In this document: one piece after another, positions 2 through 25,908 of the stretch
Layout of the letters: each line of letters begins with the position of its first letter
Numbering within the stretch: the first letter of the stretch is position 1
Assembly (NCBI GenBank): GCA_042576345.1
Contig: JBHPCE010000001.1
Coordinates: 1-61,831, forward strand
Length of the DNA: 61,831 nucleotides
Source of the DNA: Candidatus Babelota bacterium
Lineage (GTDB): Bacteria; Babelota; Babeliae; Babelales; GCA-2401785
Direction of reading: 5' to 3'
Position numbers and translations under genes: made by a program
Notes under the pieces: generated by a model
The model's database searches: none
What the model was told of the DNA's origin: nothing
Seen by the model: the letters and a program-made list of their open reading frames with translations, nothing else

Positions 2-1384
2 CTCAAAGTTCATGATTTGGTTTTAAGCCGAGATTTGCAAGGCAATTTGATACACGTTCGAATAAAATCGATTAAAAAACACAAAGTAGATTATATTTTT
101 GGAGTTTACACAGAGGGCTCAAGGCAACGCTACATCTCACTTTCACCATCTCAAACTTTGTACGACCCAGTGCGAGACGAGTGGGTTCAGGCTCAACACA
201 TAGACAAAAACACAGTTCTTTTGGATTCAGATGGCAATCATGTTGCCGTGACCAAAGTTGTCGTTCAAAAAGTTCCACAAAGGCATTTGGACAAAAATAT
301 TAGCAGTTGCTTTGCATATCCGTTTGAGCTTGAGCATTCAAATGTATTTTTCATCGTTGCCAGAAACTACAGCAATCCTTCCACTTTTCGATACATCCTA
401 GCCCACAATGGTCTACCCGCGCTTCTGCCCATAGCTGCAACGGCCTCGTTTTCTTTCGGTTCCTCGTTATCTTCATTAACCCTTACTGGAGCGACATTAA
501 GTGTCGGTAAAATTGGTCTTTCGCTGGGAATTGGGCTAACAGGAGTCGGCGTTGCCGTTTGCGTTGGCATCGCTGGCTACAAGGTTTTCAACTACTTTTT
601 CACAAAAAAACCACCAGAATTCATCGAGAGGGCAGGCAAAATTGATTCCTGGGCAAGTGACCCAAGGCCAAAGCGCACAGGAAACGCCATTGCGGCCCTT
701 CGTGACAGCGGCGAGCTTGGCGTGGTTGGAATCCAAAACTCCCAAACTCCGACTGAAAGCCCTCATCCAGCCATAACAGTCTTTGAAAATGACAATCCTT
801 CGGTAGGAATTATCGACTATGCTTTGAACTTGAATGATGAAAATCAAAAGGGAGATAAAGAAAAAGCAAAACAAAAAGATGAAGACAACGAAGTTTGTGC
901 TGCCGCCGGAGGTGGGCCACCGAAAAAGCCAGAAGATGATGACGACAAAGATGAAGAAAAAAAAGATGAGCAATCATCGGATAAAGAAGACAAAAATCAA
1001 GATAAACCAAAACAAGAAAAACCAATAGAAGATCTTGACAAAGAAACTATCATTAAAAAATTATCGGCTCTAGGTGCTGGATCTGTTGAAAAACTTCGAA
1101 GAAACTGGAAAACAATAAATCATTTTTTAAAACATACCAAGAGAGAACTTAAAAGAGCTCTTAAAAACTTTAAAAAACTTAAAAATACACATATAGAAAA
1201 AAGAAGAAATTACAATCGAGATCCCTACAAATACGACAATTTAGGAAAGTTAAAAAACGCAAAATCTCAGGAAGAAATAAACCGAACAATTTCAACACGT
1301 GACAATGAATTGGGCAATCAAATTTCTTTTCAAAATTTTTGTATAACTATAATCATTGCCTTATTGGATCTTAAAAAAGGGTAA
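2..1384 (+). CDS. Hint (Hedgehog/intein-like) domain protein with its 5' end outside the window. It carries a glycine-zipper hydrophobic segment and a charged C-terminal region, and is a candidate polymorphic-toxin-type protein.
   Basis: The frame is open back to base 2 (LKVHDLVLSRD...), so the TTG at 17 is probably not the true start. The block order DLVLSRD..GNL..V.I / EWVQAQHI.KNTVLLDSDGN.V.V / FELEHSNVFFIV....YILAHN matches Hint/bacterial intein-like domains that end in HN. This is followed by GIGLTGVGVAVCVGIAG and a K/E/D-rich tail. Confidence 0.5.
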   Translation, partial: LKVHDLVLSRDLQGNLIHVRIKSIKKHKVDYIFGVYTEGSRQRYISLSPSQTLYDPVRDEWVQAQHIDKNTVLLDSDGNHVAVTKVVVQKVPQRHLDKNISSCFAYPFELEHSNVFFIVARNYSNPSTFRYILAHNGLPALLPIAATASFSFGSSLSSLTLTGATLSVGKIGLSLGIGLTGVGVAVCVGIAGYKVFNYFFTKKPPEFIERAGKIDSWASDPRPKRTGNAIAALRDSGELGVVGIQNSQTPTESPHPAITVFENDNPSVGIIDYALNLNDENQKGDKEKAKQKDEDNEVCAAAGGGPPKKPEDDDDKDEEKKDEQSSDKEDKNQDKPKQEKPIEDLDKETIIKKLSALGAGSVEKLRRNWKTINHFLKHTKRELKRALKNFKKLKNTHIEKRRNYNRDPYKYDNLGKLKNAKSQEEINRTISTRDNELGNQISFQNFCITIIIALLDLKKG

Positions 1385-1389
1385 GTTTT

Positions 1390-1983
1390 ATGGAAATAAA
1401 GATTGACTATTTTGAATACATCTGTAACAGAATTATTTATGAAACTATATCTATGGGGTTTACCTCTATAGACATTAATGAATTTGATTTTTATTGGTGC
1501 ATTGTAGCAAGTGAGGAATATGATGACGATCCTCCCGAAGTTTGTATGGGCTCCTTGCTTGATGAGCGGGAATGGCTCTATTCAGTCTTAGACGATTCTG
1601 AAGACAACATGCCCATTATTTGCCACTACGAATGGCTTAGTCGTGTGATACAGGCTTTAAGTTATTTGGTTTTCAAGGGCAAAAAGCCAAATAAAACAGT
1701 CGATGAAACTATAGAAGTCAAAACAATCTCTCGCATTTTTGACGCCTTGGTTTTGGAGCCCAAAAAGCATGGAATAAGTTTTTTTAATATCGACTTTGAC
1801 CATCACTGGGATATAAAAATTGAAGATTTATTTGACACTTCTAAACAACCTGTACCTGTAAAATGCTCCTTGGGAAAAGATTATAAATGTTTGAAAGACA
1901 TGCTTGAAACAAATCAATTTAAACTTGCAGAGGCTCTGGAATGTTTGGCTCATTTAACAAAGGCAATCGGTTATTATAGCTAA
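1390..1983 (+). CDS. Small cytoplasmic protein, paralog 1 of 3 (candidate immunity protein)
   Basis: The ATG lies 5 nt after the upstream stop. The motif FDFYW...C.GSL.DE.EWL is shared with the next two ORFs. The protein itself looks like two copies of one module: FDFYWCIV...GSLLDEREWL...LSYL and DFDHHWDIKI...CSLGKDYKCL...AIGYY. Confidence 0.7.
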   Translation: MEIKIDYFEYICNRIIYETISMGFTSIDINEFDFYWCIVASEEYDDDPPEVCMGSLLDEREWLYSVLDDSEDNMPIICHYEWLSRVIQALSYLVFKGKKPNKTVDETIEVKTISRIFDALVLEPKKHGISFFNIDFDHHWDIKIEDLFDTSKQPVPVKCSLGKDYKCLKDMLETNQFKLAEALECLAHLTKAIGYYS

Positions 1984-2025
1984 AGGAAATTATCCCTTTT
2001 ATTAAATCAAAAAGGCTTAAGAAAG

Positions 2026-2690
2026 ATGCCACAAACAATATTTATCGCCCTCGAAAAACTAGAACAAGTCGGCTTGCGCATTTTCGAAGATGCTAAACAT
2101 CTATCACCCAAAAATCTTTGTTTAAATTGCATAAGTATCGATTACTGCTGGACCGCTTGTCCGGAAAACAAAAAACCTTCTTCCAAAAACCTGATGCCTG
2201 CATAGGTTCATTAAGCTCAAATTGGGAATGGTTGTCGAAAGTCTTGAATGGTCAAAACAGCTTTTCAGTAACTGATTTTGAAATGCTTGGTAAAATGCTT
2301 TGTGCGTTTGGATATTTTATGCAAACACCTAGTTGTATGAATTCAGAATGTTCATGTGGCGATTCAGAAAAGGTATCTCTAGCCAACCTAAAAAGCTTGT
2401 TCAATATATTCATTGACGCGATGAGTAAAAACAATTTTTATGACCTAGACTGCCAATCTATAGGCATTAATTATTGGGGCTTTAAAACGAACGAAAAGTA
2501 CAACTTCGAAAATAAAGAAACGGCCCCTGAGCCAACTAAATTTATAATCAAAGATACCTGGAACAAATTTCTGTCATTACGTAAGCACAATGCCATTTCG
2601 CTTGGAGATAGGCTTTCAATTTTGGGAGACATAATAAACATTTGCGGTGAAGTTGTATCCAATTCTGAACAACCATGGCTTTTATTTTGA
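2026..2690 (+). pseudogene. Paralog 2 of 3, disrupted by a -1 nt frameshift
   Basis: The ATG at 2026 gives MPQTIFIALEKLEQVGLRIFEDAKHLSPKNLCLNCISIDYCWTACPENKK... and stops at 2203-2205. The rest of the homology (KPDACIGSLSSNWEWLSKVL...) continues in the frame of tracked ORF 2118-2690. One extra base in the A-runs at 2170-2175 or 2184-2188 would join the two frames. Confidence 0.65.
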
Positions 2691-2696
2691 GGAAAT

Positions 2697-3314
2697 TTGT
2701 CAGTGACTCTAAAAATTAGCGAGCTAGAAGCTCTGTCGATATATGGTCTTAAAAATTTAACCAAATTAAAAATTGAGTCATTTGATTTCTCTTCTACAGA
2801 TTTTTATTGGGTAGTTTTTAGAGAAGATATGACTAAAAAGGGTGTAGCCCCTACCAATCTGGGTGTTGGATCTCTGCAGGATGAGTGGGAATGGCTTCAA
2901 GATATTTTTGATGATGAACAAATTGCCGTGACAATGGATTTCAACTACCTGGGGAGCCTTACCAGAACTATAAGCTATCTTATTTCCAATGGTTTGTTCT
3001 CTTCTAAGGCCTCAAATCAACAGTTCAACAAGCCTGTAAGAGTTGCGAAAATTCAAGATCTGTATGAAGCAATTTTTAAGAGTATTTTGGAATGTAGAAT
3101 TGAGGAAGTGGCTGTTGAGCATAATTTTTACTGGGTACTGGATATAGAAGATTCTTATTGTTTTGAAAAGATTCCAAAACCACGACAAAGGAAATTGACG
3201 GATGATATGAAATTCTTACGAGAGCAGATGAAAAACAAAAAAATGGATCACGACACTTTGGCTTTGTTTTTTGAGCGTCTTGGTAGCGTAATTAGGCTTG
3301 CAGATTTTCTTTAG
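2697..3314 (+). CDS. Paralog 3 of 3 (candidate immunity protein)
   Basis: It carries TDFYWVVF...GVGSLQDEWEWLQDIF plus a second module HNFYWVLDIED.... The GTG at 2703 sits 9 nt after GAGGA and may be the real start rather than the TTG at 2697. Confidence 0.7.
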   Translation: MSVTLKISELEALSIYGLKNLTKLKIESFDFSSTDFYWVVFREDMTKKGVAPTNLGVGSLQDEWEWLQDIFDDEQIAVTMDFNYLGSLTRTISYLISNGLFSSKASNQQFNKPVRVAKIQDLYEAIFKSILECRIEEVAVEHNFYWVLDIEDSYCFEKIPKPRQRKLTDDMKFLREQMKNKKMDHDTLALFFERLGSVIRLADFL

Positions 3315-3328
3315 AACTGAAAACGCTT

Positions 3329-4009
3329 CTAGCACCTGGACAAACTACCACCCTCCAGGTGATACACTTCATCCATCCGGTTCCACACCGTTTTGTCATG
3401 CGTACAAACTATTAAGCCATTTCCATGTTTTTCCTTGCCCCTTAGCAAAAGCTGGGTAATTTTTTCTGCGTTTTCCGCATCCAAGTTGCCTGTAGGCTCA
3501 TCTGCAAGAATGAATGAGGGAAGATTCATCATCGCCCGCACCAAGGCCACACGCTGTTGTTGTCCCCCAGAAAGTTGATTTGGAAAAAGGTCAATTTGCT
3601 TTTCAAGCCCAACTTCGCAGAGTAACTCCTTTGCTCTTCTGCTAGCATAATCCTCCTTGATTCCCCCAATTATTCCCGAAATAGCGGCGTTCTGGAGAAC
3701 TGACAGCTCACCAATCAGATAGTGAAACTGAAACATAAAGCCTATGGTTTTCCTCCTAAAATCGTTCACACTGTCTTCGCTCATCTTGAAAATGTCTTGC
3801 TCTCCAAGTTTAACCGTACCAGAGCTGGGATTGTCCAACCCTCCCAAAAGATGCATCAGTGTGGATTTTCCGCTTCCAGAAGCACCGGTTATAGCGTAAG
3901 ATCTTCCCTGCTCAAAAGAAACAGAAATGTCCTGCAAAACATTGGTCACTTTGCCACAATCTTGGACATAGGACTTTGAAAGGTTTTCCGCTGTGAGAGT
4001 TTGTTTCAT
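3329..4009 (-). CDS. ABC transporter ATP-binding protein, LolD/MacB/FtsE type
   Basis: Walker A is GASGSGKST, the signature is [14 protein letters not shown] and Walker B is [11 protein letters not shown]. The H-loop reads [20 protein letters not shown] resembles the LolD-type Q-loop region. Confidence 0.9.
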
Positions 4010-4584
4010 TTTTTTAACTTTTCTCTTTCTTCTATAAGTTTCTTATTTTCTATATACAATTCACGCCCCTTTTCATCCAAACGATTATTAAGTTCAGTAT
4101 ACATCTGGAGTAATTCACTGCTACGCAAAACTTCCTTTTTGAGGTCCTTACTTTTTTTTTCCCAATTACCAAATATCGAATCCCACCTTTTTACTATCCA
4201 ACCGCAATCACAAGATAAAGCCCTCGCTAAAAATAGTGGATAAGCAAAAAGCAAGACGACAAATGTAAAATACGAACAAAGAATCGTTTTAAAATGTACT
4301 TTGCTGATATCAATCTGCAAACGAGATTTATAATCGTCTGAATATCGATGCGAAAACCCAATGACTTTACCAAGATAATCTCTAAAACTAATCGTTTTAC
4401 CGGCCTTCTCACACTCCATTTTATATCCTTTAATCGCATAAAAAATTGTGAAACAAAGTGGAACAGGCATAAGACTGATCGCACACATTGTAGGCTTTCC
4501 ACAGCCCCCCATCAAGGGCATATTCAACATAGCAAAAAGTAAAAAAAAGGGCCAAACCAGCCTATAAATTCCACTGCAAACCAT
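4006..4584 (-). CDS. Membrane protein with a C-terminal coiled coil, paralog of 4587-5186
   Basis: It has roughly 3 hydrophobic segments followed by a K/E-rich helix ([50 protein letters not shown]). Its stop overlaps the ABC gene start by 4 nt. It shares ECxxAxKxxSFxxYL with the upstream ORF. Confidence 0.6.
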   Translation of the reverse strand: MVCSGIYRLVWPFFLLFAMLNMPLMGGCGKPTMCAISLMPVPLCFTIFYAIKGYKMECEKAGKTISFRDYLGKVIGFSHRYSDDYKSRLQIDISKVHFKTILCSYFTFVVLLFAYPLFLARALSCDCGWIVKRWDSIFGNWEKKSKDLKKEVLRSSELLQMYTELNNRLDEKGRELYIENKKLIEEREKLKK

Positions 4585-4586
4585 CT

Positions 4587-5186
4587 TTAAACACCTCTAC
4601 CTCTAGTCTTTAACCAAGTATCCATGGCTTTATTTTGCAAATTTAACGCTTCATTAAATTCTCTATAAAATCTTTCAGGCAATGGATTGCCGGCCTCAAG
4701 AGCCTCAAACCTTATGGTAAGATGATTTTCAAATAAATCATTTAGATCTCTTAGTAATTCCAAGTCGCGCGCTGTTATATTGTACTCTTTTTTAATTTTC
4801 CTCAGCGACCTATGCTTTGATTCTACTTGAACCAATCGATCATATAAACAATCAAAAGCTGCAACTTCAGTAAATGAAACGACGAGTGCTAATCCAAAAC
4901 AAATAAAAACCCACACACGCAACCTTCTTATTGGATTACCTTGAGAAATTTTTTTGTCTTCACTAAAAATGTTTTTCAAGTACTCTTTAAATGAAAGCCT
5001 TTTATCAGCAAGCTTACATTCCGCTTTGTAACTTAAATTAAAAATAAAAGTTGATGCTGCCGTGGTCAAAAAACAAACCGGCAACGTGGCAACTGCAAAT
5101 GTTTGTAGCTCACTAAATGAATTGCTGGGTGCTCCATAACACAAAACGCCCATGAACAGAACTAACAACCTCTTAATCTTTTTCAT
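4587..5186 (-). CDS. Membrane protein with a C-terminal helical domain, paralog of 4006-4584
   Basis: It has the same layout of three hydrophobic segments. Its stop abuts the next start with a 2-nt gap. Confidence 0.6.
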   Translation of the reverse strand: MKKIKRLLVLFMGVLCYGAPSNSFSELQTFAVATLPVCFLTTAASTFIFNLSYKAECKLADKRLSFKEYLKNIFSEDKKISQGNPIRRLRVWVFICFGLALVVSFTEVAAFDCLYDRLVQVESKHRSLRKIKKEYNITARDLELLRDLNDLFENHLTIRFEALEAGNPLPERFYREFNEALNLQNKAMDTWLKTRGRGV

Positions 5187-7824: not shown

Positions 7825-7875
7825 GCTCTCATTTTATAGCAATAAACCTATAGTATGCTTCAGATTTCTCTTTAA

Positions 7876-8045
7876 TGTCATCCCAGACTCGATCTGGGAT
7901 CTAGTCCCTTTTTTTGCCAAAAAATAATTTGGTTCGTGAAATTTGATCAAAGCGCCTTGAGCTGAAAAACCCCTATTCAAGCACCATTCAGCATAAAGCA
8001 TTCTGGATTAAGCGGTCTAGATCCCAGATCAAGTCTGGGATGACA
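7876..8045 (+). mobile_element. MITE copy 1 (nested-palindromic, roughly 170 bp)
   Basis: The termini tgtcatcccagactcgatctgggatctag ... ctagatcccagatcaagtctgggatgaca are inverted repeats of each other. Each terminus is also itself a hairpin (atcccaga/tctgggat). Boundaries are uncertain by about 12 bp. Confidence 0.85.
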
Positions 8046-8372
8046 ATTGAAAAAAATAAGTTTAAAACGCTGTCCCCTCAGCCTCCTGCAGGTGTAAATA
8101 CCTAAAGGTGCGCTACTATATCACCTGCTCAGGGCTGTTCTGAAATCAAAACAAAAAAAGCCCCCATAAAATGTTGCAGAATGCGTTTTTTTCACCTTTT
8201 CGCCCATTTTTAAACAAATTTGCAAAAACATTTTTTATAATATATCATAACCTCATGATGGTCTTTAAGAGGACCTGCAAAATGCAGCCTAAGTTGGATA
8301 GCTGCACTGCGAGACGGTCTCGCAACGGGGAAATGCCCCGAATGTATGTTTAATTAACCAAAAGAGAGGTTA

Positions 8373-9680
8373 ATGATGAAGAAAAATATATTGATAGTTC
8401 TTGCCATGGCGTTGTTTGCGGGCGGCGTGAGTTTTAGTGCTCATGCGAGTGACAACGTAGATCCTATGGTTAAAGCACTACAGGACGCTGGTTTTGGAAA
8501 GGGTGAATTAGAGGATTGGCAAAACTGTGATATAACAAGCTTAACTCATCTTAATTTATTCGAAGGAAAATCTTTTCACGAATATGCACAAACTGCCCAA
8601 GAAGCCGCAACCGTAGCTAAGAAACTGCAAGCCAAAGGAATTTCCAGTATGAGCCTTGACACAATTGTATCAATCGTTCATGGCAGAGATAGTCTTGATG
8701 CCGCAATAGAAAGACTCGCGAGCAAAAAAGAAAAAGAAGAAGAAGAAGAAGAGTACGATGATCTAAGCGATGACCATGGCGAAGGCCGCGGTGGTGACGA
8801 AGACGCTGTCGGCGGCGGTGATGGCTATGAAGGCGGCGGTGAAGGAGGCGGTGAAGGCGCTGTCGGTGAAGGCGGCGGTAAAGAAGACGACGATGCTGAC
8901 GACGGCCCCACAACCCCAAGATCTTCCTCACCAGACCAAGGCGTAGAAGGCGGCTACGAAGAAGGCGATGACTACGACGAAGAAGGCGGCGGCGGTGAAG
9001 GCTACGAGGAAGGTGGCTACGAGGAAGAAGGCTACGAAGAAGGCGGCAGAGATAACAACGTCGTATCTTGCCCAAACTGTGTTCATATGAACAATCCTGG
9101 ATCTACTGAATGCGCAAAATGCTTTAGCCCGCTTAGTAAACCAAACTACAATCTTTGCAGAAATTGTAAGCGATTTAGCAATTGCCAAGAAACTACATGT
9201 CCATTTTGTAATGGAACTCTAGATAAATATAATCCTCCAAAAGATTCCGGCGAACATCACGATGATGGCGACGATGACAAAACTGGATGGTTATGTACAA
9301 GCTGTTTTAAAATGAACACTATTCAAGCCAATGAATGCGCATACTGCCACCAACATATTAATCTAGGGTCCCAGGACAATGATTCCGACAAAGACTCTGG
9401 TCATTACTCAACCCTCACGCAACTGTTCTGGGCAGGAAAATATAATCTTGGAGCTGTAACAACAATTTCTGGCTCAGCAGCACTTGCTCTTTACATCGCT
9501 GCAAAAGTAGCTAAACACAGAGGCTGCAGCGCAAAAGTTGTAAAAACCTTGAAACAGCTTGCGATAGCTGGGGGCACATTGGGTGCTGGCGCATTTGTTT
9601 GGAACGGTGGAAGCATGTTGTTTGATAATCTATCGTCAGCTTGTGATAAAGACGAAAAAGCTCCAACTCCAATCAAATAA
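8373..9680 (+). CDS. Secreted acidic G/E/D-rich protein with RanBP2-type zinc fingers and a C-terminal hydrophobic hairpin
   Basis: The signal peptide reads MMKKNILIVLAMALFAGGVSFSAHA. CPNCVHMNNPGSTECAKC and WLCTSCFKMNTIQANECAYC fit (W)xCx2Cx3Nx6Cx2C. A third Cys4/5 ribbon is CRNCKRFSNCQETTCPFC. The RBS GAGAGG lies upstream. Confidence 0.8.
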   Translation: MMKKNILIVLAMALFAGGVSFSAHASDNVDPMVKALQDAGFGKGELEDWQNCDITSLTHLNLFEGKSFHEYAQTAQEAATVAKKLQAKGISSMSLDTIVSIVHGRDSLDAAIERLASKKEKEEEEEEYDDLSDDHGEGRGGDEDAVGGGDGYEGGGEGGGEGAVGEGGGKEDDDADDGPTTPRSSSPDQGVEGGYEEGDDYDEEGGGGEGYEEGGYEEEGYEEGGRDNNVVSCPNCVHMNNPGSTECAKCFSPLSKPNYNLCRNCKRFSNCQETTCPFCNGTLDKYNPPKDSGEHHDDGDDDKTGWLCTSCFKMNTIQANECAYCHQHINLGSQDNDSDKDSGHYSTLTQLFWAGKYNLGAVTTISGSAALALYIAAKVAKHRGCSAKVVKTLKQLAIAGGTLGAGAFVWNGGSMLFDNLSSACDKDEKAPTPIK

Positions 9681-9741: not shown

Positions 9742-10788
9742 TTATTTTGTAGCTATGTACTCAAGAACGTCCAAGTTCCTTGGAAAAAAATCCTTATTTT
9801 TTCTGGATTCGCACCAAATTTTCTTTGTCTCATCACTCGAGCAACGCTCAATAAGCCCGTCTATCGAACAAAGAACATTTTCTGGAATAATTACCACTTT
9901 TGTCTTCCTTCCTGTGGTCATGTACACAACAGAAGCCGCAAAGAGACTTTCACTGTCGCACAATCCCTTAAGACAGGTTTTTTCAAGATGCGTAAAATTG
10001 AGCTGTATCGACAACTGCTTATTCTCAATTGATATCCCTCTTTTGCCTCCTTTAGCTTTCCAGCCTAAGTAATTGCACCCCGCAAGACTCCACAGAGCTT
10101 TGTTAAGCTCTATAAACTCATGTTCCATCCTGCCGACAACAGTTGTGTAATAATTTGTAACGCTTTTTAAAACTTCAAAAACCTGCCGCAACTCACTCAC
10201 ACTCAATAGTCTGGAATAACAATCTAGTTCGCGATTCTCACTTCTTGAAAAACTGGTTAAAATTCCAGGCATCAAAATAGCGGCAACGCCTCCTTTGTAC
10301 CTCAAAGATATTGTGAACGGCACTTCCCAACGAACGCTAAACCCAGTTTCCACTTCCTCGTGTGGCCAGGAAAAGTGGCAATAATTTGGAAACTCTTTTG
10401 TCAAAAACATCGAAAAAGTACGTTCGATAGGCGAATTCATGTACTCTGCGACAAGCTCACAAAGCTCTTCTGGAGAATCCTCCCAGGCGTTGTAAACAAT
10501 ATTTTTAAGTTCACAGCAGTTTCTTATCTCTCGCTGGTTAAGCTCTGTTGAAGAGATGGATACAGTGGTCAAAACGCCCAATAATGAAAATACAGATTTT
10601 AACCTCTTTGTCATCCCAGGCTTTGACCTGGGATCTAAACCGATTAATCCCAAATAATTTAACAGAAAATCTTGCTTAGAGCGGCATTCAGACTTTGTTT
10701 CCTTGATCATTTTTATCAAAAAACGGAATAGATCCCAGATCAAGTCTGGGATGACAGATTTGTCTAAAAACGACGCTAACAACTTCAT
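9742..10788 (-). CDS. Hypothetical protein whose annotated 5' end runs through a MITE
   Basis: The ORF of 348 aa has no recognisable motif. Residues 1-59 are a translation of MITE copy 2 (VIPDLIWDL, GLDPRSKPGM). A more likely start is the ATG at 10614, inside the MITE terminus gggATGaca, which gives MTKRLKSVFSLLGVLTTV.... Confidence 0.55.
   Translation of the reverse strand: MKLLASFLDKSVIPDLIWDLFRFLIKMIKETKSECRSKQDFLLNYLGLIGLDPRSKPGMTKRLKSVFSLLGVLTTVSISSTELNQREIRNCCELKNIVYNAWEDSPEELCELVAEYMNSPIERTFSMFLTKEFPNYCHFSWPHEEVETGFSVRWEVPFTISLRYKGGVAAILMPGILTSFSRSENRELDCYSRLLSVSELRQVFEVLKSVTNYYTTVVGRMEHEFIELNKALWSLAGCNYLGWKAKGGKRGISIENKQLSIQLNFTHLEKTCLKGLCDSESLFAASVVYMTTGRKTKVVIIPENVLCSIDGLIERCSSDETKKIWCESRKNKDFFPRNLDVLEYIATK
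10609..10756 (-). mobile_element. MITE copy 2 (shorter, inverted orientation)
   Basis: The termini are tgtcatcccaggctttgacctgggatc ... gatcccagatcaagtctgggatgaca. The internal sequence aligns to the reverse complement of copy 1. Confidence 0.8.
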
Positions 10789-10896
10789 ACGCTCAAAACC
10801 TCCATTTGCCTAGCTGCATAGATTTTAAGTCGTCAAACAAAACCTTTGGGACTACTTTTACACGCAAATATGCCCATAAATCAAGCAAAAAAGCTC

Positions 10897-12105
10897 TTAA
10901 ATGAACAAGCTTACAACAGCAGCATTCAAAAGGTTTACCAGAGTGCCACCCAACAAAGCTCTTAGACCAAGCCTTATTAAAACACCCCTCTTGGAAGGCA
11001 CCAGAGAGCCCAGCCCCCCAATTTGAATCCCTATCGATGGAAGACTTGCAAATCCACACAGTGCGTAAGTCATTATGGCCAAAGAACGCTCAGAAAGATT
11101 AGCTTTTAAGAGGCCCATATAACCCACAAATTCGTTTATAATTAGTTTCTTCCCCAGAACAGACCCCGCCGCTAAACTTTCGCTTCCCGGAATTCCTATG
11201 ATTCTAGCCACAAACGAAAAAATAAACCCCAAGATGGTTTCAAATGTGTACGCTGTGCCAAAAATCAAAGTGGTAATCTTGGCCATCAAAAAATTGGCCA
11301 TAGCGATCAAGCTTATAAATGAGATGAGCATTGCCATAACATTAAGCGCTAAACCTAAACCATCTGTTGTTCCTGTAGAAATCGCATCAATAACATTTGA
11401 AGTTGTAGGCTGTGCAACCTGATCTGTTTTTTCAATATCTGCTTCCGTTTCTGGCATCAGAATTTTTGAAATTAAAATTGAAGATGGAACGGCCATTACA
11501 CTCGCTGTCAAAAGGTGAGATACGGGAATCCCAAGAGATGCATACACGGCCAAAATAGCGCCACTTATTGTCGCCATTCCACTGACCATTACAAGAAATA
11601 TCTGAGAATCGCTCATGCTCGAAATGTAATTTTTCACCAAAAGAGGCGCTTCGGTTTGGCCCAGTAGAATGTTGGCAACAGCACAAAGCGTTTCTGCCCC
11701 AGCTGTCCCCAAAAACGGCCTTATAACCTTGGAAATGCCCGAAACCACCACCTGGATTACACCAATGTGAAACAAAAGTGACATAAACGCGCTAAAAAAT
11801 ATTATTAATGATGCAACCTTTATGGCAAAAATTAACTTCCACGGTCCCGCAGGATCAGCAAGCTCTCCAAAAACAAACCCAGCCCCACTACCGGCAAAAT
11901 CTTGTAGTGAGACAACTGCCGAAGCACAGTATGAAAAAAGAGTTTGCCCAAATGAAGTTTTTAGAATCAAGACACACAAGATCACCTGAAAAATAAGAGC
12001 TTTTAATGCGTAGTCTAAGCGTATTTTAGACCTGTTTACGGAAAACGCGTAAGCTGTTAACAAAATTGAAAAAATACCAATTAAACCCGTAAATTGGCCA
12101 AGCAT
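10897..12105 (-). CDS. nupC: Concentrative nucleoside transporter (NupC/CNT family)
   Basis: It is a polytopic protein of 402 aa. It carries the CNT-type motifs GKKLIINEFVGY and GFASLPSIGIQIGG. Confidence 0.8.
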   Translation of the reverse strand: MLGQFTGLIGIFSILLTAYAFSVNRSKIRLDYALKALIFQVILCVLILKTSFGQTLFSYCASAVVSLQDFAGSGAGFVFGELADPAGPWKLIFAIKVASLIIFFSAFMSLLFHIGVIQVVVSGISKVIRPFLGTAGAETLCAVANILLGQTEAPLLVKNYISSMSDSQIFLVMVSGMATISGAILAVYASLGIPVSHLLTASVMAVPSSILISKILMPETEADIEKTDQVAQPTTSNVIDAISTGTTDGLGLALNVMAMLISFISLIAMANFLMAKITTLIFGTAYTFETILGFIFSFVARIIGIPGSESLAAGSVLGKKLIINEFVGYMGLLKANLSERSLAIMTYALCGFASLPSIGIQIGGLGSLVPSKRGVLIRLGLRALLGGTLVNLLNAAVVSLFI

Positions 12106-12158
12106 CCAGGTCTCCTTTCACGCCAAAAACCGATAGAATTCTTCAAATTTCCCTTTAA

Positions 12159-12328
12159 TGTCATCCCAGACTTGATCTGGGATCTATACCTTTTTTTTGC
12201 TAAAAAAATATTTTGGTTCATGAAATTTTATCTTATCAGTTTAAGCTCGTAATCCTTGTTAACGCATCTTTCGTCATGAAGTTTCCTGTATTAAGCGGCC
12301 TAGATCCCAGATCGAGTCTGGGATGACA
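12159..12328 (+). mobile_element. MITE copy 3
   Basis: It has the same termini and internal sequence as copy 1 (gggatctataccttttttttgctaaaaaaatattttggttcatgaaatt...). Confidence 0.85.
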
Positions 12329-12425
12329 ATAGGTTAAAAAAATCGCTTAAACACCCTGCTCCAAAAATTCTCCTCACGACAACCAACTAAGAACGCCTTG
12401 CCATACATCCAAAAATTTTTTGATT

Positions 12426-13481
12426 CTAAACATCGATATTTTTTGTTCTCTTTTCCCGATCAGCAGCCATAAGAGGACCTATAACATCATCTAAATCGCC
12501 CTGCATTACAAGGTCCAATTTTTTCAGTGTCAAGCCAATGCGGTGGTCTGTAACACGATTTTGTGGAAAATTATACGTACGAATTTTCTCAGATCTCTCT
12601 CCTGTACCAACTTGCTCCTTACGCGCTGAGCTTCTCTCTTGTTCCAGCCTCTCACGCTCAGCTTCAAAAAGCCTTGATCTAAGAACCTTTAAAGCTTTTT
12701 CCCGATTTTTCAGCTGTGATCGCTCTTCCTGACAACTAACGACAACCCCGGTCGGAACATGTGTTATACGCACAGCAGAATCTGTTGTATTGACATGCTG
12801 CCCACCTGCGCCACTGGCCCTAAAAGTGTCAATCCGAAGGTCTGAAGGATTTATTGAAATATCAACTTCGCTTGCTTCTGGCATTACAGCAACTGTGATT
12901 GTTGAAGTGTGAATTCTTCCAGCAGCCTCTGTTGTTGGAACCCTTTGCACTCTGTGAACACCTGCCTCATGTTTGAAGAGCGCAAACGCACCCTTTCCCT
13001 TGACGTACATTACAATTTCTCTAAATCCACCAACTTCTGTTGGACTCTCGGATGTCACCGAAACCGTCCACCCTTTGTTTTGGGCATATGCACTGTACAT
13101 CTTGAAAAGATCTGCAACAAACAAAGATGCTTCCTGGCCACCAGCACCTGCTCTAAGCTCTAAAAACGCCGGTTTTGCATCGCACACATCTGGTGGCGAT
13201 AAAATATCTTCAAGCTCATGCATAAGCTCTTCACGGCGCCCTTTAGCGTCTTTTAGCTCATCTTCGTACAAGGCCTTGAGCTCATCGTCTAACTCTGCAC
13301 CACGCTTGCACTCACGAATTTCTAGGTCCAGCTTGTTCATTTCATCATGCAATGATAAAAGCCGCCCAAGTTGGGCGGCTCTTCTTTGAAGACTTACACG
13401 CTTTTCACGGGGAACGGAGGCATCGGCCAATTTGTCAGATATCTCAGAAAACTCTTTACGTAATTCCGGCCAATCTATCAT
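12426..13481 (-). CDS. prfA: Peptide chain release factor 1
   Basis: It has the GGQ motif ([23 protein letters not shown]). The RF1-type tripeptide region reads [18 protein letters not shown], with no SPF motif. Confidence 0.9.
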
Positions 13482-13514
13482 TAGCTCCCCCGCTGCAAAG
13501 AAAAAGTATAAAAC

Positions 13515-13754
13515 TTACTTTTTTTTGTTCTTTTTATTTTTCTTGGCACCATCACCAACATTTGCATACCTGGCTTGGAATTTTTCAATTCGCCCAGCCC
13601 TGTCCACAAACTTTTGTTGACCAGTGAAAAACGGATGGCAAGCAGAACATATATCGATTTCTATCTTAGACTTTGTAGAAACTGTCGAAAACTTGTTTCC
13701 GCAAGCACAAACCACCGTGGATTCAAATCTTTCCGGATGAATTCCTTTTTTCAT
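13515..13754 (-). CDS. rpmE: 50S ribosomal protein L31 with a K-rich C-terminal tail
   Basis: The translation reads MKKGIHPE...CACGN...[28 protein letters not shown]. The start is set at the internal ATG (13754) of tracked ORF 13515-13787. Confidence 0.9.
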
Positions 13755-13774
13755 AACTTTCACATCTCCAGCAA

Positions 13775-14806
13775 TCACCCGCCGCAAACTTTTTTTACGC
13801 TGCGACGCAATTTACCAATCACTTCCACTCTTCGAACATCCACTCCCAACTTAATTCCCAAGTTGTAAGAGGCAAAATCTGGCCAAATAACATGGGAAAT
13901 AAGCTGATTACACCAATTATCTCCCAAAACTCTCGGTCTGTAAAGCTGAGTATTATTTTCCCTCACGATATCGCAAAACTTATCTACGGCGTATGCCAAT
14001 TTCTTGTCCAAAAATTCCGTTGTAAAAACCAATGCTGCAGCAGGTTTCGAATTTTCACCAAAGCCCTCTATTAAATTGTGGTGAGCTTCTGGCAATCCAG
14101 AAAAAACAGCTCTAATTTTGGAATTCTCATTGAATTGTGTCTGAGCCCTGTAAGCCGCCCAAAAAGTATCACCGCTAACACCAAAAATATGCAAATCACG
14201 ATTTTCAAAATCTATTTCTAAAAAGTCGCTGTATTCACGCTTGTCAGAAAAAACCTCAACAACGCGTTCTATGTGCGTATTCAAATCATCTATTAAATTG
14301 GCAATTTCGACAAAACCTAAATTATCAATCAAAGAAAGTAATATCCCAACAAACCTGCCCAGCTCTTCGCGCGGCGTAGCACCAGTTTTAGGAGTATTCA
14401 AAACCCATGCTCCAGCCTTGCAAGCCTTTTCTGCCAAAATTCCGCCGACAGTAATCGCGCACAAATTCGCACCACAACCAACTACCCTGTCCAGAACATC
14501 CAAAATTTCCCAAGTATTTCCCGAATGAGAAACCAAAACCAAAAGATCCCCGCGGCCTAAATCAACCGGTATATCAAACGGATCCGATGCCAAAACTTTT
14601 GTACAGCCATTCCTAGAAGAGATCATGGAAACAATCTTCCCGGCTATGCCAGAGCCACCAATGCCGGTAATTACAACCCTGGAAAGCTTTTCTGAAAGAA
14701 TTTCACTATTATTTTCGAAAAAGTCCTTAGCGAGCTTAACTCCCTCACGAAACTTTTTCGGCCACAACAAGTACTCAGACACAACATAATCTCCAAAAAT
14801 AGGCAA
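13775..14806 (-). CDS. SIS-domain bifunctional phosphoglucose/phosphomannose isomerase-like protein
   Basis: It carries GIGGSGIAG and [12 protein letters not shown] motifs. Its length (343 aa) fits the PGI/PMI family. Confidence 0.7.
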
Positions 14807-15748: not shown

Positions 15749-16711
15749 TTATTTTCTGAAAAAATCCTCATTAACTTTAAGCGATGATCCCTCTTTGAAG
15801 CCTTCAAGCTTCGAATTAAGAATTTCACCAAAAGCCTTTTCTTCGAGCATTGATTTGATTTGAGGTTTTACCTCGTCAAACTTGTAGAATTCTGCATCTT
15901 TTTTGTCCATTACAAAGACAACCCAGAATTCCTTGTCACCAACTTCAACGATGCCTGCACCTGGGAATTTTTTCATTCCGAGAGCTTTTTTGGCAACCTT
16001 GTCAGGAGCACCTCTAAATGCCGCCTCTGTCACTCTACCAAAGTCTCTGTAGGTGGCTTTTTTGGCAGCCTTTGCGGCCTTTTCAAAGTCAGCAATTGTC
16101 TTGGCACTAACACTTGTTGCAAAGTTCTTAGCATCTTCCTCGCTAGCAAATTTTGCACCAGCAAGTCTTACTCCACCAGCAACTTTTGTGTAGCGTTCTT
16201 TATTGTTATCAAACTCTTTCTGAATCTCTGAGTCCTTGACGGTTATCTCTCCGCGCATGCTTGCAACGAATTTTTCTACTACCAAAGCATCTTCTAATGC
16301 TTCAACTCTGTCAGCAAGTTCACGCTTGAACTCCGAAGAATCTTTTATTTTGTTATCAGATCCCCAAACTTCCTTGATTAAAATTACGTTTAACCAATCA
16401 TTAAGAAGTTTTAATTTTGCTTCGGATGGAACCGTTGCAGGATCAATATCTTTTGTATAAGCGTTAGCTTGAAGCATCTGCCTCAATTTGTCATTAAAAG
16501 CACTTTCCATAATCACAGGCTTACCGCGAATCTCCGCCAAGACAGCGCCAGTACCTTTAGCCCCGGTAACACCTTCGGCTATCACCTGCCTAGGTTTAGC
16601 TTTTTTGCCAAAAATCCAGGACCAATCGCATCCCGGTATCAAAAACAATACAGCACATAAAGCAATACCAGACATTGCCTTTGCTGCGTTAGACCTCTTT
16701 AGCAGTTTCAT
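15749..16711 (-). CDS. Lipoprotein, SurA/PpiD/PrsA-like chaperone
   Basis: The start is trimmed to the ATG at 16711, which has a GAGGGA RBS 7 nt upstream. This gives MKLLKRSNAAKAMSGIALCAVLFLIPGC with a lipobox. The longer tracked ORF to 16942 would overlap the divergent gene. Confidence 0.55.
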   Translation of the reverse strand: MKLLKRSNAAKAMSGIALCAVLFLIPGCDWSWIFGKKAKPRQVIAEGVTGAKGTGAVLAEIRGKPVIMESAFNDKLRQMLQANAYTKDIDPATVPSEAKLKLLNDWLNVILIKEVWGSDNKIKDSSEFKRELADRVEALEDALVVEKFVASMRGEITVKDSEIQKEFDNNKERYTKVAGGVRLAGAKFASEEDAKNFATSVSAKTIADFEKAAKAAKKATYRDFGRVTEAAFRGAPDKVAKKALGMKKFPGAGIVEVGDKEFWVVFVMDKKDAEFYKFDEVKPQIKSMLEEKAFGEILNSKLEGFKEGSSLKVNEDFFRK

Positions 16712-16924
16712 ATTCGTTTCCCTCATAAGTAAGAACTGCCAACAAAACAACAACATACTTAGCAAATGTACCACAGAACAGCATATTTTCAAGGAAAATA
16801 ATGAAAATTTTACAACATCATTTCCAACAAGGTAAAACCAATGAAAAAAGTTTGCACTTTCTTGTATTTTTGATAGCGTAGCCAAATTCAAAGACCACAA
16901 AAAACATTCTGAAAGGGGAAAGGA

Positions 16925-17935
16925 ATGAGAGAGAGGACTCAATGCTTTGTAACGTACATACTTATTATCACTTTTATTTACTCTTACATCTGCGATTCTA
17001 GTGAAAAGATTTCCAGAGAAGAACTATCCGAAATGCCATTAGCATCGCATTCAAAACTAAGTCAAGTGTTCGAAGACAAACAAAATCTTGCAAATACCCT
17101 ACTTAACGTAACTCTTCTACCGGAGGATTTAATAAGGTATTGCATAGTGCCATACATAGGATTTACCAGAGCACACACATACGACGGAGCCAGGCTCACC
17201 CACACAATTCTTTTTGATGAGGCTGGCAATATTTACCAACACAATCACGCCGTTGGACTCGTTAAATATGAGGAAGCAAAGATGGAATTTAAAAAAATAA
17301 GAGAAGTGGACCAAAAACTTTTAAACGAAATTATGGAAGATACAAAAAAACAGGAAGAGTTGAAAAGACAATATGAAGGCGCCGAATCTATAAACTATTC
17401 GGACATCCCCTGTGCAAACTTTTTGGATTTAGAGGATCTTAACAGAGATTTCAAGTTCTCATTCAAGGAAGACGAGTACTTTGTTACACAAAACGGCCAA
17501 TGCTACAAAGACACAGAAGAAAGGCTTGTCAGATGTATCTTTGCACACAACAAGAGAGACTTTAGAAAAGAATTTCTAAATCAAACAAGCGGCTTAATGC
17601 GCCTCTTATCACCTTCAACGTGGATTGCTTTGGGAGGAATCGTTGGCTGCATTCTCATAGGTAAGTTCAAAGAAAAAGAAATTAAAAAAATTAAATCAAA
17701 AAAAATACACCGACGTGAAAAAAGAGCCCAAATTAAAAAGCTTGAGGAAAAAGTTCAAAAATGGCTTTTGCTCTCATATGGTGCTTCAGCACTCGGCTTT
17801 ATAGTGGCAACTCTTTACGATGGAGAGCGCCTATCCGACTCAAACTGCCCAGAAGACTACATACAAGCACTCTTAAGCTGTCCAATCAACGTCACCGCAA
17901 GACAAGCTTGGATGAAGGCGACAGGCAAAATCTAG
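16925..17935 (+). CDS. Hypothetical membrane protein with a TM - basic loop - TM hairpin
   Basis: The N-terminus is signal-like. The hairpin reads WIALGGIVGCILIG - KFKEKEIKKIKSKKIHRREKRAQIKKLEEKVQK - WLLLSYGASALGFIVATLY. Confidence 0.6.
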   Translation: MRERTQCFVTYILIITFIYSYICDSSEKISREELSEMPLASHSKLSQVFEDKQNLANTLLNVTLLPEDLIRYCIVPYIGFTRAHTYDGARLTHTILFDEAGNIYQHNHAVGLVKYEEAKMEFKKIREVDQKLLNEIMEDTKKQEELKRQYEGAESINYSDIPCANFLDLEDLNRDFKFSFKEDEYFVTQNGQCYKDTEERLVRCIFAHNKRDFRKEFLNQTSGLMRLLSPSTWIALGGIVGCILIGKFKEKEIKKIKSKKIHRREKRAQIKKLEEKVQKWLLLSYGASALGFIVATLYDGERLSDSNCPEDYIQALLSCPINVTARQAWMKATGKI

Positions 17936-18000
17936 CCATAGCAAATAATGCTTAAATTTAGACAAGTTAAATATTGAATTTTCCCGTATTTTTTCTCTAA

Positions 18001-18170
18001 TGTCATCCCAGACTCGATCTGGGATCTCTTCCTCTTAATTTAAACAGCCTTGCTATGAAAGGCGCTTGAATAGACATTTCCCAGCTTAAAACATTCCTGT
18101 TCAAATTCTATGAACCAAAACATTTTATGGCAAAAAAAGGACTAGATCCCAGATCAAGTCTGGGATGACA
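18001..18170 (-). mobile_element. MITE copy 4 (inverted orientation)
   Basis: It has the same termini. Its reverse complement aligns with copy 1 (gggatctagtcctttttttgccataaaatgttttggttcatagaa...). Confidence 0.85.
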
Positions 18171-18202
18171 GATTTGTTTAGACATGAGAAATTTTGGCCA
18201 TA

Positions 18203-24097: not shown

Positions 24098-24835
24098 ATG
24101 TATCTGAAAAATAAATCATTTTCACTTCTGTCATTTCTTCTGATTGCATTTTCTACTGGTTTAAAACCAAAGGAGGTCACAAATGATCAAGAAAAATGGA
24201 GACGCATAGCAAAATATTTGGTTTGTAAAGACGAAGTTATAAGTTACGCAAAAAGTTATGGAACAAAGTGGGGCGCAGTTATTCTTGCCCTTTCAACATC
24301 ATCTTTAACCATATTAGTGTATAAAGCATTTCTTATTAAAAATTTATTTAAAGATGCGGTCTTACCTAGACAACCTAATGATCAAAACTCAATTTTAAGT
24401 AATATTCCTCCCAGCATAGCAATCGCTGCTATACCATTTTCTATTTTCAGTGTAATTGGCGCAATCGCAGGAAGATATGGAGCCGGCAAAACCGCCTCTA
24501 AGTCTATCGATAAGATTAAAACCAATCGCATTAAAAAACTGTTTTTTCGAACAGAAAGGTGGCTTGAAAAAAACACTCCTGAAGAGGTAAAAACCTTAAT
24601 CATAAAATACAAGGAAACTGCAGACGTACGCCCAATAGAAGATCAAGATTTTATACTAATTTCAAATAAAATAGAAAAACTGTGGGAAGAAAATTCTCAA
24701 AATGAAGATAATTTGGCTGAATTGACTGAAAAGGAAATAGATGAATTAAGAAAAGATATTTGGACGGTATTTCGGAATGCATTGTTTATCGGCTCAAATA
24801 ACAACGGCAATGGTTTTAAGCTTACTTTTCTGTAA
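24098..24835 (+). CDS. Hypothetical membrane protein with a hydrophobic hairpin
   Basis: It has a signal-like N-terminus and two hydrophobic segments (AVILALSTSSLTILVYKAFLI ... IAIAAIPFSIFSVIGAIAG). The RBS AAGGA lies upstream. Confidence 0.6.
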   Translation: MYLKNKSFSLLSFLLIAFSTGLKPKEVTNDQEKWRRIAKYLVCKDEVISYAKSYGTKWGAVILALSTSSLTILVYKAFLIKNLFKDAVLPRQPNDQNSILSNIPPSIAIAAIPFSIFSVIGAIAGRYGAGKTASKSIDKIKTNRIKKLFFRTERWLEKNTPEEVKTLIIKYKETADVRPIEDQDFILISNKIEKLWEENSQNEDNLAELTEKEIDELRKDIWTVFRNALFIGSNNNGNGFKLTFL

Positions 24836-25188: not shown

Positions 25189-25908
25189 GTGGTTGACATG
25201 AAGATGAAAAATATATTTATGGGCATTATTGCGATATTCCTTTCACAAAACATAATCAAAACAACAGAACCATCCCCCTTGACAGTACTTAAAGAGGATG
25301 GAATAAATTTACAGGAAGCGGAAGACATAAGTTCTCGTTTAAATTTGCAACAAAAAATAGATGCGACCAAACAAATCATTAAATCTAGGAGTTCGGCTAC
25401 TGTTACATTTAAACTTAACGGAAAGTTTTACTTCTTTACGCCATTTACAAAAAAATGGTACGTAATTGGATCGTCAAAAGAAACTTCCGAACTTAATGAT
25501 GATGATCTAAAAGAAATCTCTGAGAAAGAATTGCAAAAACTCATACCACCAACAATTATTGGATCGCCAAAAGAAATTTCCGAACTTAATTTCGAAAACG
25601 TTACCTTAGGCTCACTAAAATCACCCTACGCTCTCCTTACAGCCTCGGGAATTTTAATCCCTGTGGGAACGTTAATCTACTACATTATAAAATCAAAAAA
25701 TAAAGGCATGGGCGATAAAATTAAACAAGCGTTCAGAAAATTGTTAAGAAACAAGATTCTGCTTGCATCTTCACTGACACTTTTGACTGTAGGAATCGGC
25801 TCCAAGTGCCTCAACAGAGTGTTCGAAAGTGAAGGGCCATGTAAAACATTTGTTGATTTCATGAACAAGCCATTGGAAGGCTGGAAGAAGTCTGGCGATG
25901 ACGACTAA
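25189..25908 (+). CDS. Secreted/membrane protein, family member A, with a shared C-terminal hairpin module
   Basis: It has a signal peptide and an internal repeat (GSSKETSELN / GSPKEISELN). The C-terminal module ENVTLGSLKSPYALLTASGILIPVGTLIYYIIKSKNKGMGDKIKQ... is shared with 26244-27020. The ATG at 25198 may be the true start. Confidence 0.65.
   Translation: MVDMKMKNIFMGIIAIFLSQNIIKTTEPSPLTVLKEDGINLQEAEDISSRLNLQQKIDATKQIIKSRSSATVTFKLNGKFYFFTPFTKKWYVIGSSKETSELNDDDLKEISEKELQKLIPPTIIGSPKEISELNFENVTLGSLKSPYALLTASGILIPVGTLIYYIIKSKNKGMGDKIKQAFRKLLRNKILLASSLTLLTVGIGSKCLNRVFESEGPCKTFVDFMNKPLEGWKKSGDDD

Follow-up and report, generated by a model that had tools for sequence, protein, structure and literature searches.

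The window analyzed here, a stretch of 61,831 nucleotides, is a complete contig of a Candidatus Dependentiae metagenome-assembled genome (MAG; proteins MFC18542xx, locus tags ACFLY6_). Ten of its open reading frames (ORFs), here termed A to J, encode proteins with a hairpin of two hydrophobic segments, predicted to be transmembrane (TM) helices, joined by a loop rich in lysine and arginine (K/R). The housekeeping gene content of the contig fits an energy-parasitic diderm. These genes encode two Lon proteases, two Npt-type ATP/ADP translocase paralogues, a nucleoside transporter, a release factor (RF), MurF, FtsK, MreC, GlmM, GatCA, GrpE, two HtrA-like proteases, a SurA-like protein, and a protein with a PPIC-type rotamase (peptidyl-prolyl isomerase, PPIase) domain, along with two paralogues that resemble outer-membrane proteins (OMPs) and end in Phe. 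The gene order S2-Npt-Npt-Lon is conserved across the Dependentiae; protein B occupies a variable slot adjoining Lon, and the genes for C, D, a further ORF termed D2, and E form an insertion after the second Npt gene, at a point where relatives run straight into the gene for ribosomal protein S2. The hairpin genes have a slightly lower GC content at third codon positions (GC3) than the other genes (0.32 vs. 0.38). Rfam gave no match in the window.

An earlier note on this DNA had described the arrangement TM-basic loop-TM in eight otherwise unrelated accessory proteins and had compared it with the bilobed hydrophobic domain of the chlamydial inclusion membrane (Inc) proteins. With a hydrophobic run defined as at least 15 residues that lack D/E/K/R and have a mean Kyte-Doolittle (KD) hydropathy of at least 1.0, all eight of the regions it had listed prove to contain two charge-free hydrophobic runs joined by a K/R-rich loop of 17–44 residues. 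Two further members on the minus strand, I and J, bring the total to ten. The hairpins, with positions of the helices given in residues, are as follows.

A: 9441-9623 (+), in gene 8373-9680; TM1 357-377, loop of 17 residues (6 K/R, 0 D/E), TM2 395-417, tail of 18 residues
B: 17603-17818 (+), in gene 16925-17935; TM1 227-246, loop of 33 residues (16 K/R, 5 D/E), TM2 280-298
C: 24269-24472 (+), in gene 24098-24835; TM1 58-75, loop of 20 residues (4 K/R, 2 D/E), TM2 96-125
D: 25621-25803 (+), in gene 25189-25908; TM1 145-167, loop of 22 residues (9 K/R, 1 D/E), TM2 190-205
E: 26607-26789 (+), in gene 26244-27020; TM1 122-144, loop of 22 residues (8 K/R, 1 D/E), TM2 167-182
F: 42262-42477 (+), in gene 39430-42546; TM1 945-969, loop of 30 residues (7 K/R, 1 D/E), TM2 1000-1016
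G: 56906-57142 (-), in gene 56237-57244; TM1 35-52, loop of 44 residues (9 K/R, 5 D/E), TM2 97-113, followed by poly-Glu
H: 58172-58348 (+), in gene 58091-59488; TM1 28-42, loop of 19 residues (8 K/R, 2 D/E), TM2 62-86
I: 4869-5108 (-), in gene 4587-5186; TM1 27-53, loop of 37 residues (11 K/R, 5 D/E), TM2 91-106
J: 4225-4494 (-), in gene 4006-4584; TM1 31-51, loop of 48 residues (11 K/R, 6 D/E), TM2 100-120

The description therein of eight proteins thus stands, with some adjustment of its particulars. The eight represent seven independent cases, because D and E, with modules 82% identical, are paralogous to each other; the rest are unrelated, as had been claimed. The loop length of 15–35 residues given earlier holds for all except G, with 44 residues; the loops are K/R-rich as described, although that of C, the weakest basic loop of the set, has a net charge of only +2; and both hydrophobic segments are present throughout, although the second run of A and both runs of H are weakly hydrophobic (KD 0.75–1.4).

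The frequency of this architecture in the window greatly exceeds that in the controls. A strict detector, requiring exactly two non-signal hydrophobic runs, a loop of 8–50 residues, and a net loop charge of at least +3, flags 8 of the 48 ORFs in the window, one of them an artefact, while in residue-shuffled versions of the window proteins the mean number flagged is 0.27 and the maximum 2. The artefact (15749-16942) is an over-long ORF for the PPIC-type rotamase/PPIase-domain protein, which is possibly PpiD-like and whose real start gives a lipoprotein-type signal. The same detector flags 1 of 177 ORFs in 200 kb of Escherichia coli K-12, a spurious ORF within 23S rRNA, and 4 of 812 in 80 metagenomic Lon neighborhoods (1 Mb), none of which has a signal peptide and three of which are plainly false. 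A second version, in which a signal peptide is required and up to four runs are allowed, flags 6 of 48 ORFs in the window compared with 2 of 368 in other Dependentiae loci (p=4e-5) and 2 of 745 in non-Dependentiae loci (p=9e-7); both of the latter matches are polytopic cytochromes b, leaving no true hairpin among the 745. It should be noted that these control loci are skewed to Lon neighborhoods: the 80 loci are the yield of a metagenome scan with the Lon of a relative, in which the relative's own contig was not recovered. A scan of genome contigs with the OMP pair of the window gave one syntenic contig of 7 kb, which carries no hairpin genes, and a metagenome scan with the Npt pair gave no match.

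Within the contig the module is confined to genes of one kind. It occurs in 10 of the approximately 24 genes that have no housekeeping Pfam assignment and in none of the 25 Pfam-assigned housekeeping genes (p=2e-4). Nine of the ten hairpin proteins match no Pfam family at all and the tenth, H, matches pentapeptide repeats only, while the sole housekeeping protein with two TM segments (DUF502) has no signal peptide and is not flagged by the detector. The earlier note had reasoned that its proposal would be refuted if the hairpin were equally frequent in housekeeping membrane proteins of the genome and, because the hairpin is missing from all 25 housekeeping genes on the contig, that is not the case here. 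We conclude that the hairpin marks a class of accessory proteins with a real anchoring signature that is robust in statistical terms.

The N-termini and the distribution of charge point to how these proteins might be inserted. N-termini resembling Sec-type signal peptides are recognized in seven of the ten proteins by a heuristic and in nine by eye, each consisting of a basic n-region and a hydrophobic h-region, with an AXA-like end in several (AHA-SD in A, VGA-TD in G, and YGA-PS in I). Protein E lacks a signal peptide of its own, probably because a frameshift at a homopolymer tract splits it from the preceding ORF, which has one:

D2: 25898-26287 (+), signal peptide and small domain; probably the N-terminal part of E beyond the frameshift

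The tract, C11A5 at 26262-26277, lies exactly at the overlap of D2 and E, and both frames there read PPPPK. The tract represents either a frameshift from assembly or sequencing or a site of slipped-strand phase variation in a gene of surface type. Taken together, the ten loops contain 89 K/R vs. 28 D/E in 292 residues, whereas the 15-residue flanks contain 37 K/R vs. 46 D/E in 300 residues, with the C-terminal flank net acidic. The K/R share is therefore 30% in the loops against 12% in the flanks, which is the textbook positive-inside pattern. A signal peptide combined with this charge distribution predicts that the N-terminus is out, the loop in, and the C-terminus out.

The helices themselves appear to be ordinary. 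The hydrophobicity of the hairpin runs is no different from that of 51 hydrophobic runs in six transporters encoded on the same contig (Mann-Whitney p=0.33). On the simple Hessa sum, a crude scale that falls short of the full delta-G predictor, the hairpin runs have a median of 2.4 and the transporter runs one of 1.85. The two sets also do not differ in Gly, small-residue, or aliphatic content. A signature of reduced hydrophobicity or of glycine zippers, as in secreted TM proteins, was considered and was not found in the hairpin runs. Given this ordinary hydrophobicity and composition, Sec should treat the runs as stop-transfer and re-insertion segments. AlphaFold2 (AF2), run without an alignment on B and A (C-terminal half), gave an overall predicted local distance difference test (pLDDT) score of ~42 with only the hairpin helices usable, and in both proteins these form a predicted helix-turn-helix that runs through the loop. 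In B a helix at 230-258 is followed by a turn and a helix at 263-301, the pLDDT in the loop reaching 95, and in A there are helices at 362-382, 387-402, and 406-425, with pLDDT of 64–80.

What the ten proteins share is an architecture rather than one homologous domain, as judged by sequence comparison. A single homologous hairpin domain was tested by all-against-all Smith-Waterman alignment of the modules against block-shuffled controls and was rejected, as all pairs gave z<2 except D/E (z=27) and I/J (z=7). In both of these pairs it is the module that is conserved. D and E are 82% identical over 101 residues that comprise only the module and a short tail, within a DNA repeat that is 85% identical (25594-25893 and 26580-26879), and their N-terminal passengers are unrelated. 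I and J are homologous over the module only (27% identity, E=1e-5) and share the loop motif YK.EC..A.K..SF..YL. Because conservation is limited to the module in both pairs, the module behaves like a cassette, reused or kept by selection, on genes that turn over rapidly. B is an ORFan, for which a collection of 5.8 billion clusters holds no homologue. A search with the central domain of F against 1.84 billion representative proteins gave no relative, and H matches only generic pentapeptide proteins. Searches of PDB sequences with the passengers of B, C, G, and of a protein from a related genome described below gave nothing meaningful. Residues 48-144 of G, spanning the loop, TM2, and poly-Glu, have a weak PDB match (E=2e-4), probably compositional, to yeast proteasome subunit alpha-7 in its C-terminal part.

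The passenger precedes the hairpin in A, B, D, E, and F and follows it in C, G, H, I, and J. The earlier note had claimed proline-rich spacers next to the hairpin in three proteins, and these are real in E, F, and H:

E: 26502-26549 (+), Pro-rich spacer KPPKPKPKPKPKQEP, ~20 residues before TM1
F: 41632-42009 (+), Pro-rich stalk between passenger and hairpin, with an (EP)n run, 12 tandem 21-nt units encoding PDEPAVV, and EPKPEP
H: 58346-58414 (+), Pro-rich spacer EPEPEPEPDEPAVPLEIPSVPS, directly after TM2

The spacers (EPEPEPEP, DEPAV(V)P, and KPKPKPKPK) all lie on the passenger side of the anchor, and in composition they match the periplasm-spanning rod of translated E. coli TonB, EPEPEPEPIPEPP...KPKPKPKPKPKP. 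The passengers are varied. The C-terminal domain of H consists of pentapeptide repeats (Pfam 3e-27), F carries an extremely Cys-rich domain, and A has Cys4 zinc ribbons, for which the best Pfam score, to a double zinc ribbon, is 2.6e-4 and below threshold. A RanBP2-type finger, the identity that had been given to A, was rejected, as A matches the RanBP2 finger of Nup153 at E=1.5, short of significance. With that match gone and with pentapeptide repeats being mainly bacterial, the description of the passengers as eukaryote-like was an overstatement. Close to H the window also encodes a SET-domain protein (59845-60672, minus strand; Pfam 4.5e-19) that begins with a signal peptide. The 3' end of its gene is repeated 2 kb away at 57757-57975 (-) as a 173-nt copy of 93% identity, such that the two copies flank H as direct repeats.

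Related loci carry variations on the same layout. The closest available genome (GCA_023131495.1, Lon 81% identical) encodes in the slot adjoining Lon a 355-residue protein, L016, with a signal peptide, a weak Gly/Ala-rich TM segment, a 50-residue loop (11 K/R), a second TM segment, a Pro-rich spacer, and a globular domain, although its sequence has no similarity to the window proteins. A more distant Dependentiae-like locus has a 159-residue protein of the same layout. Where Lon is 68% identical, the slot beside it holds a protein (L017, 3256-3942, minus strand) with a signal peptide, ankyrin repeats, a single TM segment, and a basic tail, and in other Dependentiae the variable slot on the Lon side contains ankyrin or leucine-rich repeat (LRR) proteins with signal peptides (12541-14160 in locus L006 and 10012-13770 in locus L011). 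The layouts of L016, the 159-residue protein, and L017 show that the theme of a Sec signal, TM segment, and basic cytoplasmic segment is broader in the phylum and that the two-helix version is expanded in the lineage of the window.

Sec, type II secretion, and type IV pilus genes are the only functions of this kind that the literature on the phylum describes. In Chromulinavorax destructans 44% of coding sequences have signal peptides, which are enriched in ORFans and ankyrin proteins, most of the ankyrin proteins have signal peptides, outer-membrane vesicles have been seen, and replication takes place in the host cytoplasm. A comparative paper on TM6 counts genes for type II secretion, and possible ones for type IV pili, among the core functions and describes the outer membrane as degenerate, and a search of its text finds type III or type IV secretion nowhere mentioned. 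In the Dependentiae literature that we examined we found no description of a TM-basic loop-TM anchor.

Based on the data presented above, we put forward a hypothetical mechanism in which the module is a hairpin inserted by Sec and YidC, with both its termini out, that anchors fast-evolving accessory proteins in the bacterial inner membrane, and to which we give about an even chance of being correct. Specifically, the N-terminal signal peptide would carry the N-terminus over the inner membrane until transfer is halted by the first hydrophobic helix. The helical K/R-rich loop would be kept in the cytoplasm, according to the positive-inside rule, and the second helix would bring the remaining chain back out. 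The passenger would then be tethered periplasmically irrespective of whether it comes before or after the hairpin, since an N-out/C-out topology places every passenger on the trans side, whichever side of the hairpin it occupies. In E, F, and H, the TonB-like rod could hold the passenger off the membrane, pointing to the outer membrane or to the interface with the host. What we infer from sequence, namely export by Sec, the topology, localization in the envelope, and any function of the passengers, finds a suitable setting in a diderm that appears to be centered on Sec and whose contig encodes OMP-like, SurA-like, and HtrA proteins.

Several points weigh against this proposal. An inner-membrane tether on its own leaves the host contact of lineage-specific proteins unexplained, and the Cys4 ribbons of A, the Cys-rich domain of F, and the neighboring SET protein with its signal peptide suit the reducing host cytosol better than the periplasm. 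TM2 of A and both segments of H are marginal and might not span the membrane. The likeness of the spacers to TonB is one of composition and not homology. The signal peptide and TM calls rest on home-made hydropathy rules and not on SignalP, DeepTMHMM, or TOPCONS, and our view covers one contig, such that other secretion systems encoded elsewhere in the genome lie outside it.

The module has precedents among known systems, each of which it resembles in part. Two close TM helices oriented by a K/R-rich cytoplasmic segment, following the positive-inside rule, constitute the helical-hairpin mode of membrane insertion. Compared with the classical hairpin, it is the cleavable signal peptide together with a long helical polybasic loop, in ten proteins of a 62-kb contig, that is unusual, and no ORF among the 177 sampled from E. 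coli combines a signal peptide with a polybasic hairpin. The layout of TonB, with an anchor, a rigid (Glu-Pro)n/(Lys-Pro)n spacer, and a distal domain, is exactly that of H, and in E and F the spacer likewise lies between passenger and anchor. TonB, however, has a single N-terminal anchor, the TonB C-terminal domain, and ExbB/ExbD as partners, whereas the Pfam matches include neither TonB_C in the hairpin proteins nor ExbB/ExbD on the contig. The resemblance to TonB is thus one of composition and function. The secretome of Chromulinavorax, from the same phylum, relies in the same way on N-terminal signal peptides for its lineage-specific proteins; what differs from that literature is the TM-basic loop-TM anchor, which is rare outside the present lineage in our sample (2 of 368 ORFs).

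The comparison with the Inc proteins, from which the earlier note had started, is instructive in its differences. As in the Incs, we see mutually dissimilar accessory proteins of an obligate intracellular bacterium that are recognizable only by a two-helix hairpin, and in both sets the hairpin can lie near either end of the protein and the proteins account for a large share of the lineage-specific genes. Incs have two TM helices of 15–32 residues separated by a loop of 3–22 residues (mean of 8) in a bilobed domain of 40–60 residues, and the in silico screen for them used a loop cutoff of <30 residues (Dehoux et al., PMC3048545). Their loops are enriched in P/G/N/S/T and are without K/R/D/E, they have an N-terminal type III signal, and their termini reside in the host cytosol (PMC3048545). 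In contrast, the loops of the present proteins are 17–48 residues long with ~30% K/R and are helical in the AF2 predictions for A and B. Five of them fall under the 30-residue cutoff, none is near the mean of 8, and the modules span 59–90 residues. The N-termini are Sec-like, and the termini are predicted to lie on the side away from the bacterial cytoplasm. There are no type III components among the Pfam matches of the contig, and none of the hairpin proteins matches a Pfam Inc family. The analogy thus fails on defining features of Incs, namely loop composition and the N-termini, while loop length gives a mixed picture. Hydrophobicity at the level of the contig's transporter helices speaks against the analogy as well. 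Membership of the Inc class is not supported, and the idea that these proteins work like Incs needs an unknown exit route for TM proteins. Of the suggestion that the anchoring module may mark a class of effectors, what is supported is that it marks a class of accessory proteins, without the features that define Incs.

A similar contrast applies to the TM effectors of type III and type IV systems in Legionella, Coxiella, and Salmonella, where one or two TM segments are likewise found on variable effector domains. Such effectors typically carry a type IV signal at the C-terminus or a type III signal at the N-terminus, without a Sec signal peptide, and they are of moderate hydrophobicity, by which they escape the signal recognition particle (SRP), with short loops and an N-in/C-in orientation (PMC12981334). 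More hydrophobic TM effectors can pass via an inner-membrane intermediate in Legionella (PMC12981334). The hairpin proteins differ in that their hydrophobicity is at the housekeeping level, they have signal peptides and long loops, and the opposite orientation is predicted.

Two of the hairpin genes stand in a particular context. I and J are directly followed, on their own strand, by the gene for an ATPase:

LolD-like ABC ATPase: 3329-4009 (-), Pfam ABC_tran 5e-31

The best NCBIfam match of this ATPase is to LolD (4e-67) and is under the curated cutoff, the start of its gene overlaps the J stop by 4 nt, and no LolC/E-type permease adjoins it. I and J are translationally coupled to this LolD-like cytoplasmic ATPase, and the arrangement would fit cytoplasmic loops that dock a cytoplasmic partner. 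It also speaks for the inner-membrane anchor proposed above.

Three other explanations need to be weighed against an inner-membrane anchor. The hairpin proteins could be host-membrane effectors and functional analogues of Incs that leave the cell after Sec export, by type II secretion, in vesicles, or by extraction from the inner membrane, with the hairpin inserting in a host-derived membrane and the passengers shown to the host. We consider this unlikely. In its favor, the module is found solely in accessory, ORFan genes at variable genomic positions, the lineage in which it shows its strong enrichment lives as an obligate intracellular one, and the passengers (zinc ribbons, Cys-rich, poly-Glu, and repeats) are effector-like, with the signal-peptide SET protein adjoining. 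The Cys4 ribbons of A and the Cys-rich domain of F would be awkward in an oxidizing periplasm. Signal peptides on ankyrin proteins are a habit of the phylum, most ankyrin proteins of Chromulinavorax have them and its vesicles have been seen, type II secretion is core to a phylum with a degenerate outer membrane, and the precedent of Legionella shows that TM effectors can take an inner-membrane intermediate. However, the loops are opposite to those of Incs in composition and tend to be longer, the N-termini are Sec-like rather than of type III, and the TM hydrophobicity is not below that of housekeeping proteins, unlike that of type III/IV TM effectors. Furthermore, insertion from the lumenal or outer face would mean that either a polybasic loop of 17–48 residues or the whole passenger crosses the host membrane, for which no machinery is known. 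The phylum has no known secretion system for TM proteins, and Chromulinavorax replicates in the host cytoplasm and not in an inclusion.

It is to a similar degree improbable that the hairpins have no function in common and that these are heterogeneous, young, low-complexity ORFan membrane proteins that acquired the topology most easily acquired, namely two helices with a basic loop, the weak segments (TM2 of A, and H) in part not being transmembrane. This would agree with module pairs beyond D/E and I/J being no better than block-shuffled ones (z<2), with the lack of homologues of B and F, with the marginal hydrophobicity of A and H, with the variants of a single TM segment and basic tail in relatives, and with the slightly lower GC3 of the hairpin genes. 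Against this, ten cases in 48 ORFs, compared with ~0.5% in other Dependentiae loci and none elsewhere, are hard to explain by drift alone. In both paralogue pairs the hairpin, including residues of the loop, is conserved while the passengers have diverged or been swapped, and such conservation of the hairpin only implies selection on, or reuse of, the module. The architecture also recurs, with unrelated sequence, in the same slot of the closest relative. Finally, the proteins might be subunits of envelope machines whose basic loops dock cytoplasmic partners, with I and J, for example, replacing LolC/E for the LolD-like ATPase. The I-J-ATPase genes are contiguous on one strand, the J stop overlaps the ATPase start, no canonical permease adjoins, and the loop motif of I and J is conserved. 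This setting, however, covers only I and J, the other eight genes being scattered outside any such operon. I and J also differ from LolC/E-type permeases, in which there are four TM helices together with a large periplasmic domain, and the ATPase is below the LolD cutoff. We regard this last explanation as very improbable.

Further features of the contig lie outside the hairpin genes. The two OMP-like paralogues (31706-33160 and 33676-35148, both plus strand) are 44% identical, each with a signal peptide and a C-terminal Phe, and match no Pfam or NCBIfam family. The pair is kept in tandem in MAG CSMAG_1513 (locus L001), where the first is 76% identical. Between the OMP pair and a MatE transporter, 35352-37814 (+) encodes an 820-residue exported ORFan that has no hairpin, in which a signal peptide is followed by a near-unbroken coiled coil with only weak SMC-like matches. 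An intergenic element of ~200 bp that resembles a miniature inverted-repeat transposable element (MITE) is present in four copies (7839-8062, 12122-12345, 17964-18187, and 57538-57741). Its ends are inverted 30-bp palindromic motifs (AATGTCATCCCAGACTCGATCTGGGATCTAG and its reverse complement), with a solo motif at 10710-10773, and it has no match in Rfam. Three of the copies directly adjoin hairpin genes, two lying upstream (of A and of G) and one downstream (of B). The ORF at 17-1384 (+), which begins at the contig edge, shows by eye a Hint-like '...ILAHN' motif and has a Gly/Ser/Ala-rich hydrophobic stretch of 60 residues split by one Lys, a short-loop bilobed arrangement more Inc-like than the ten hairpins, and then an acidic/basic low-complexity region and a C-terminal hydrophobic tail. 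It is followed at 1390-3314 (+) by three ORFs of ~200 residues that match no Pfam family and, on inspection, look like paralogues, and the whole recalls a toxin with an immunity array.

Widespread as obligate parasites of protists, the Dependentiae have no known injection system, although about half of their genes carry signal peptides, and next to nothing is known of how their proteins reach the host. The helical hairpin is a known form of membrane anchor; its version with a signal peptide and a polybasic loop appears, from the Dependentiae papers that we examined, to be new. This signature, a signal peptide with two helices and a polybasic loop and often a Pro-rich stalk, does not depend on sequence similarity and could be used to pick candidates for proteins of the host or envelope interface from hundreds of uncultured, ORFan-rich genomes. 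If the proteins reside in the inner membrane, then screens for a 'bilobed hydrophobic domain' mislead outside the Chlamydiae unless loop charge and signal type are weighed. It is also conceivable, although we think it rather unlikely, that this lineage has evolved host-interaction proteins that are anchored in a Sec-dependent and type III-independent manner, with a reusable cassette and fast-turnover passengers, and that act at the host interface or host membranes as a convergent counterpart of the Incs. Should the proteins indeed reach host membranes, they would represent a second, independently evolved Inc-like solution.

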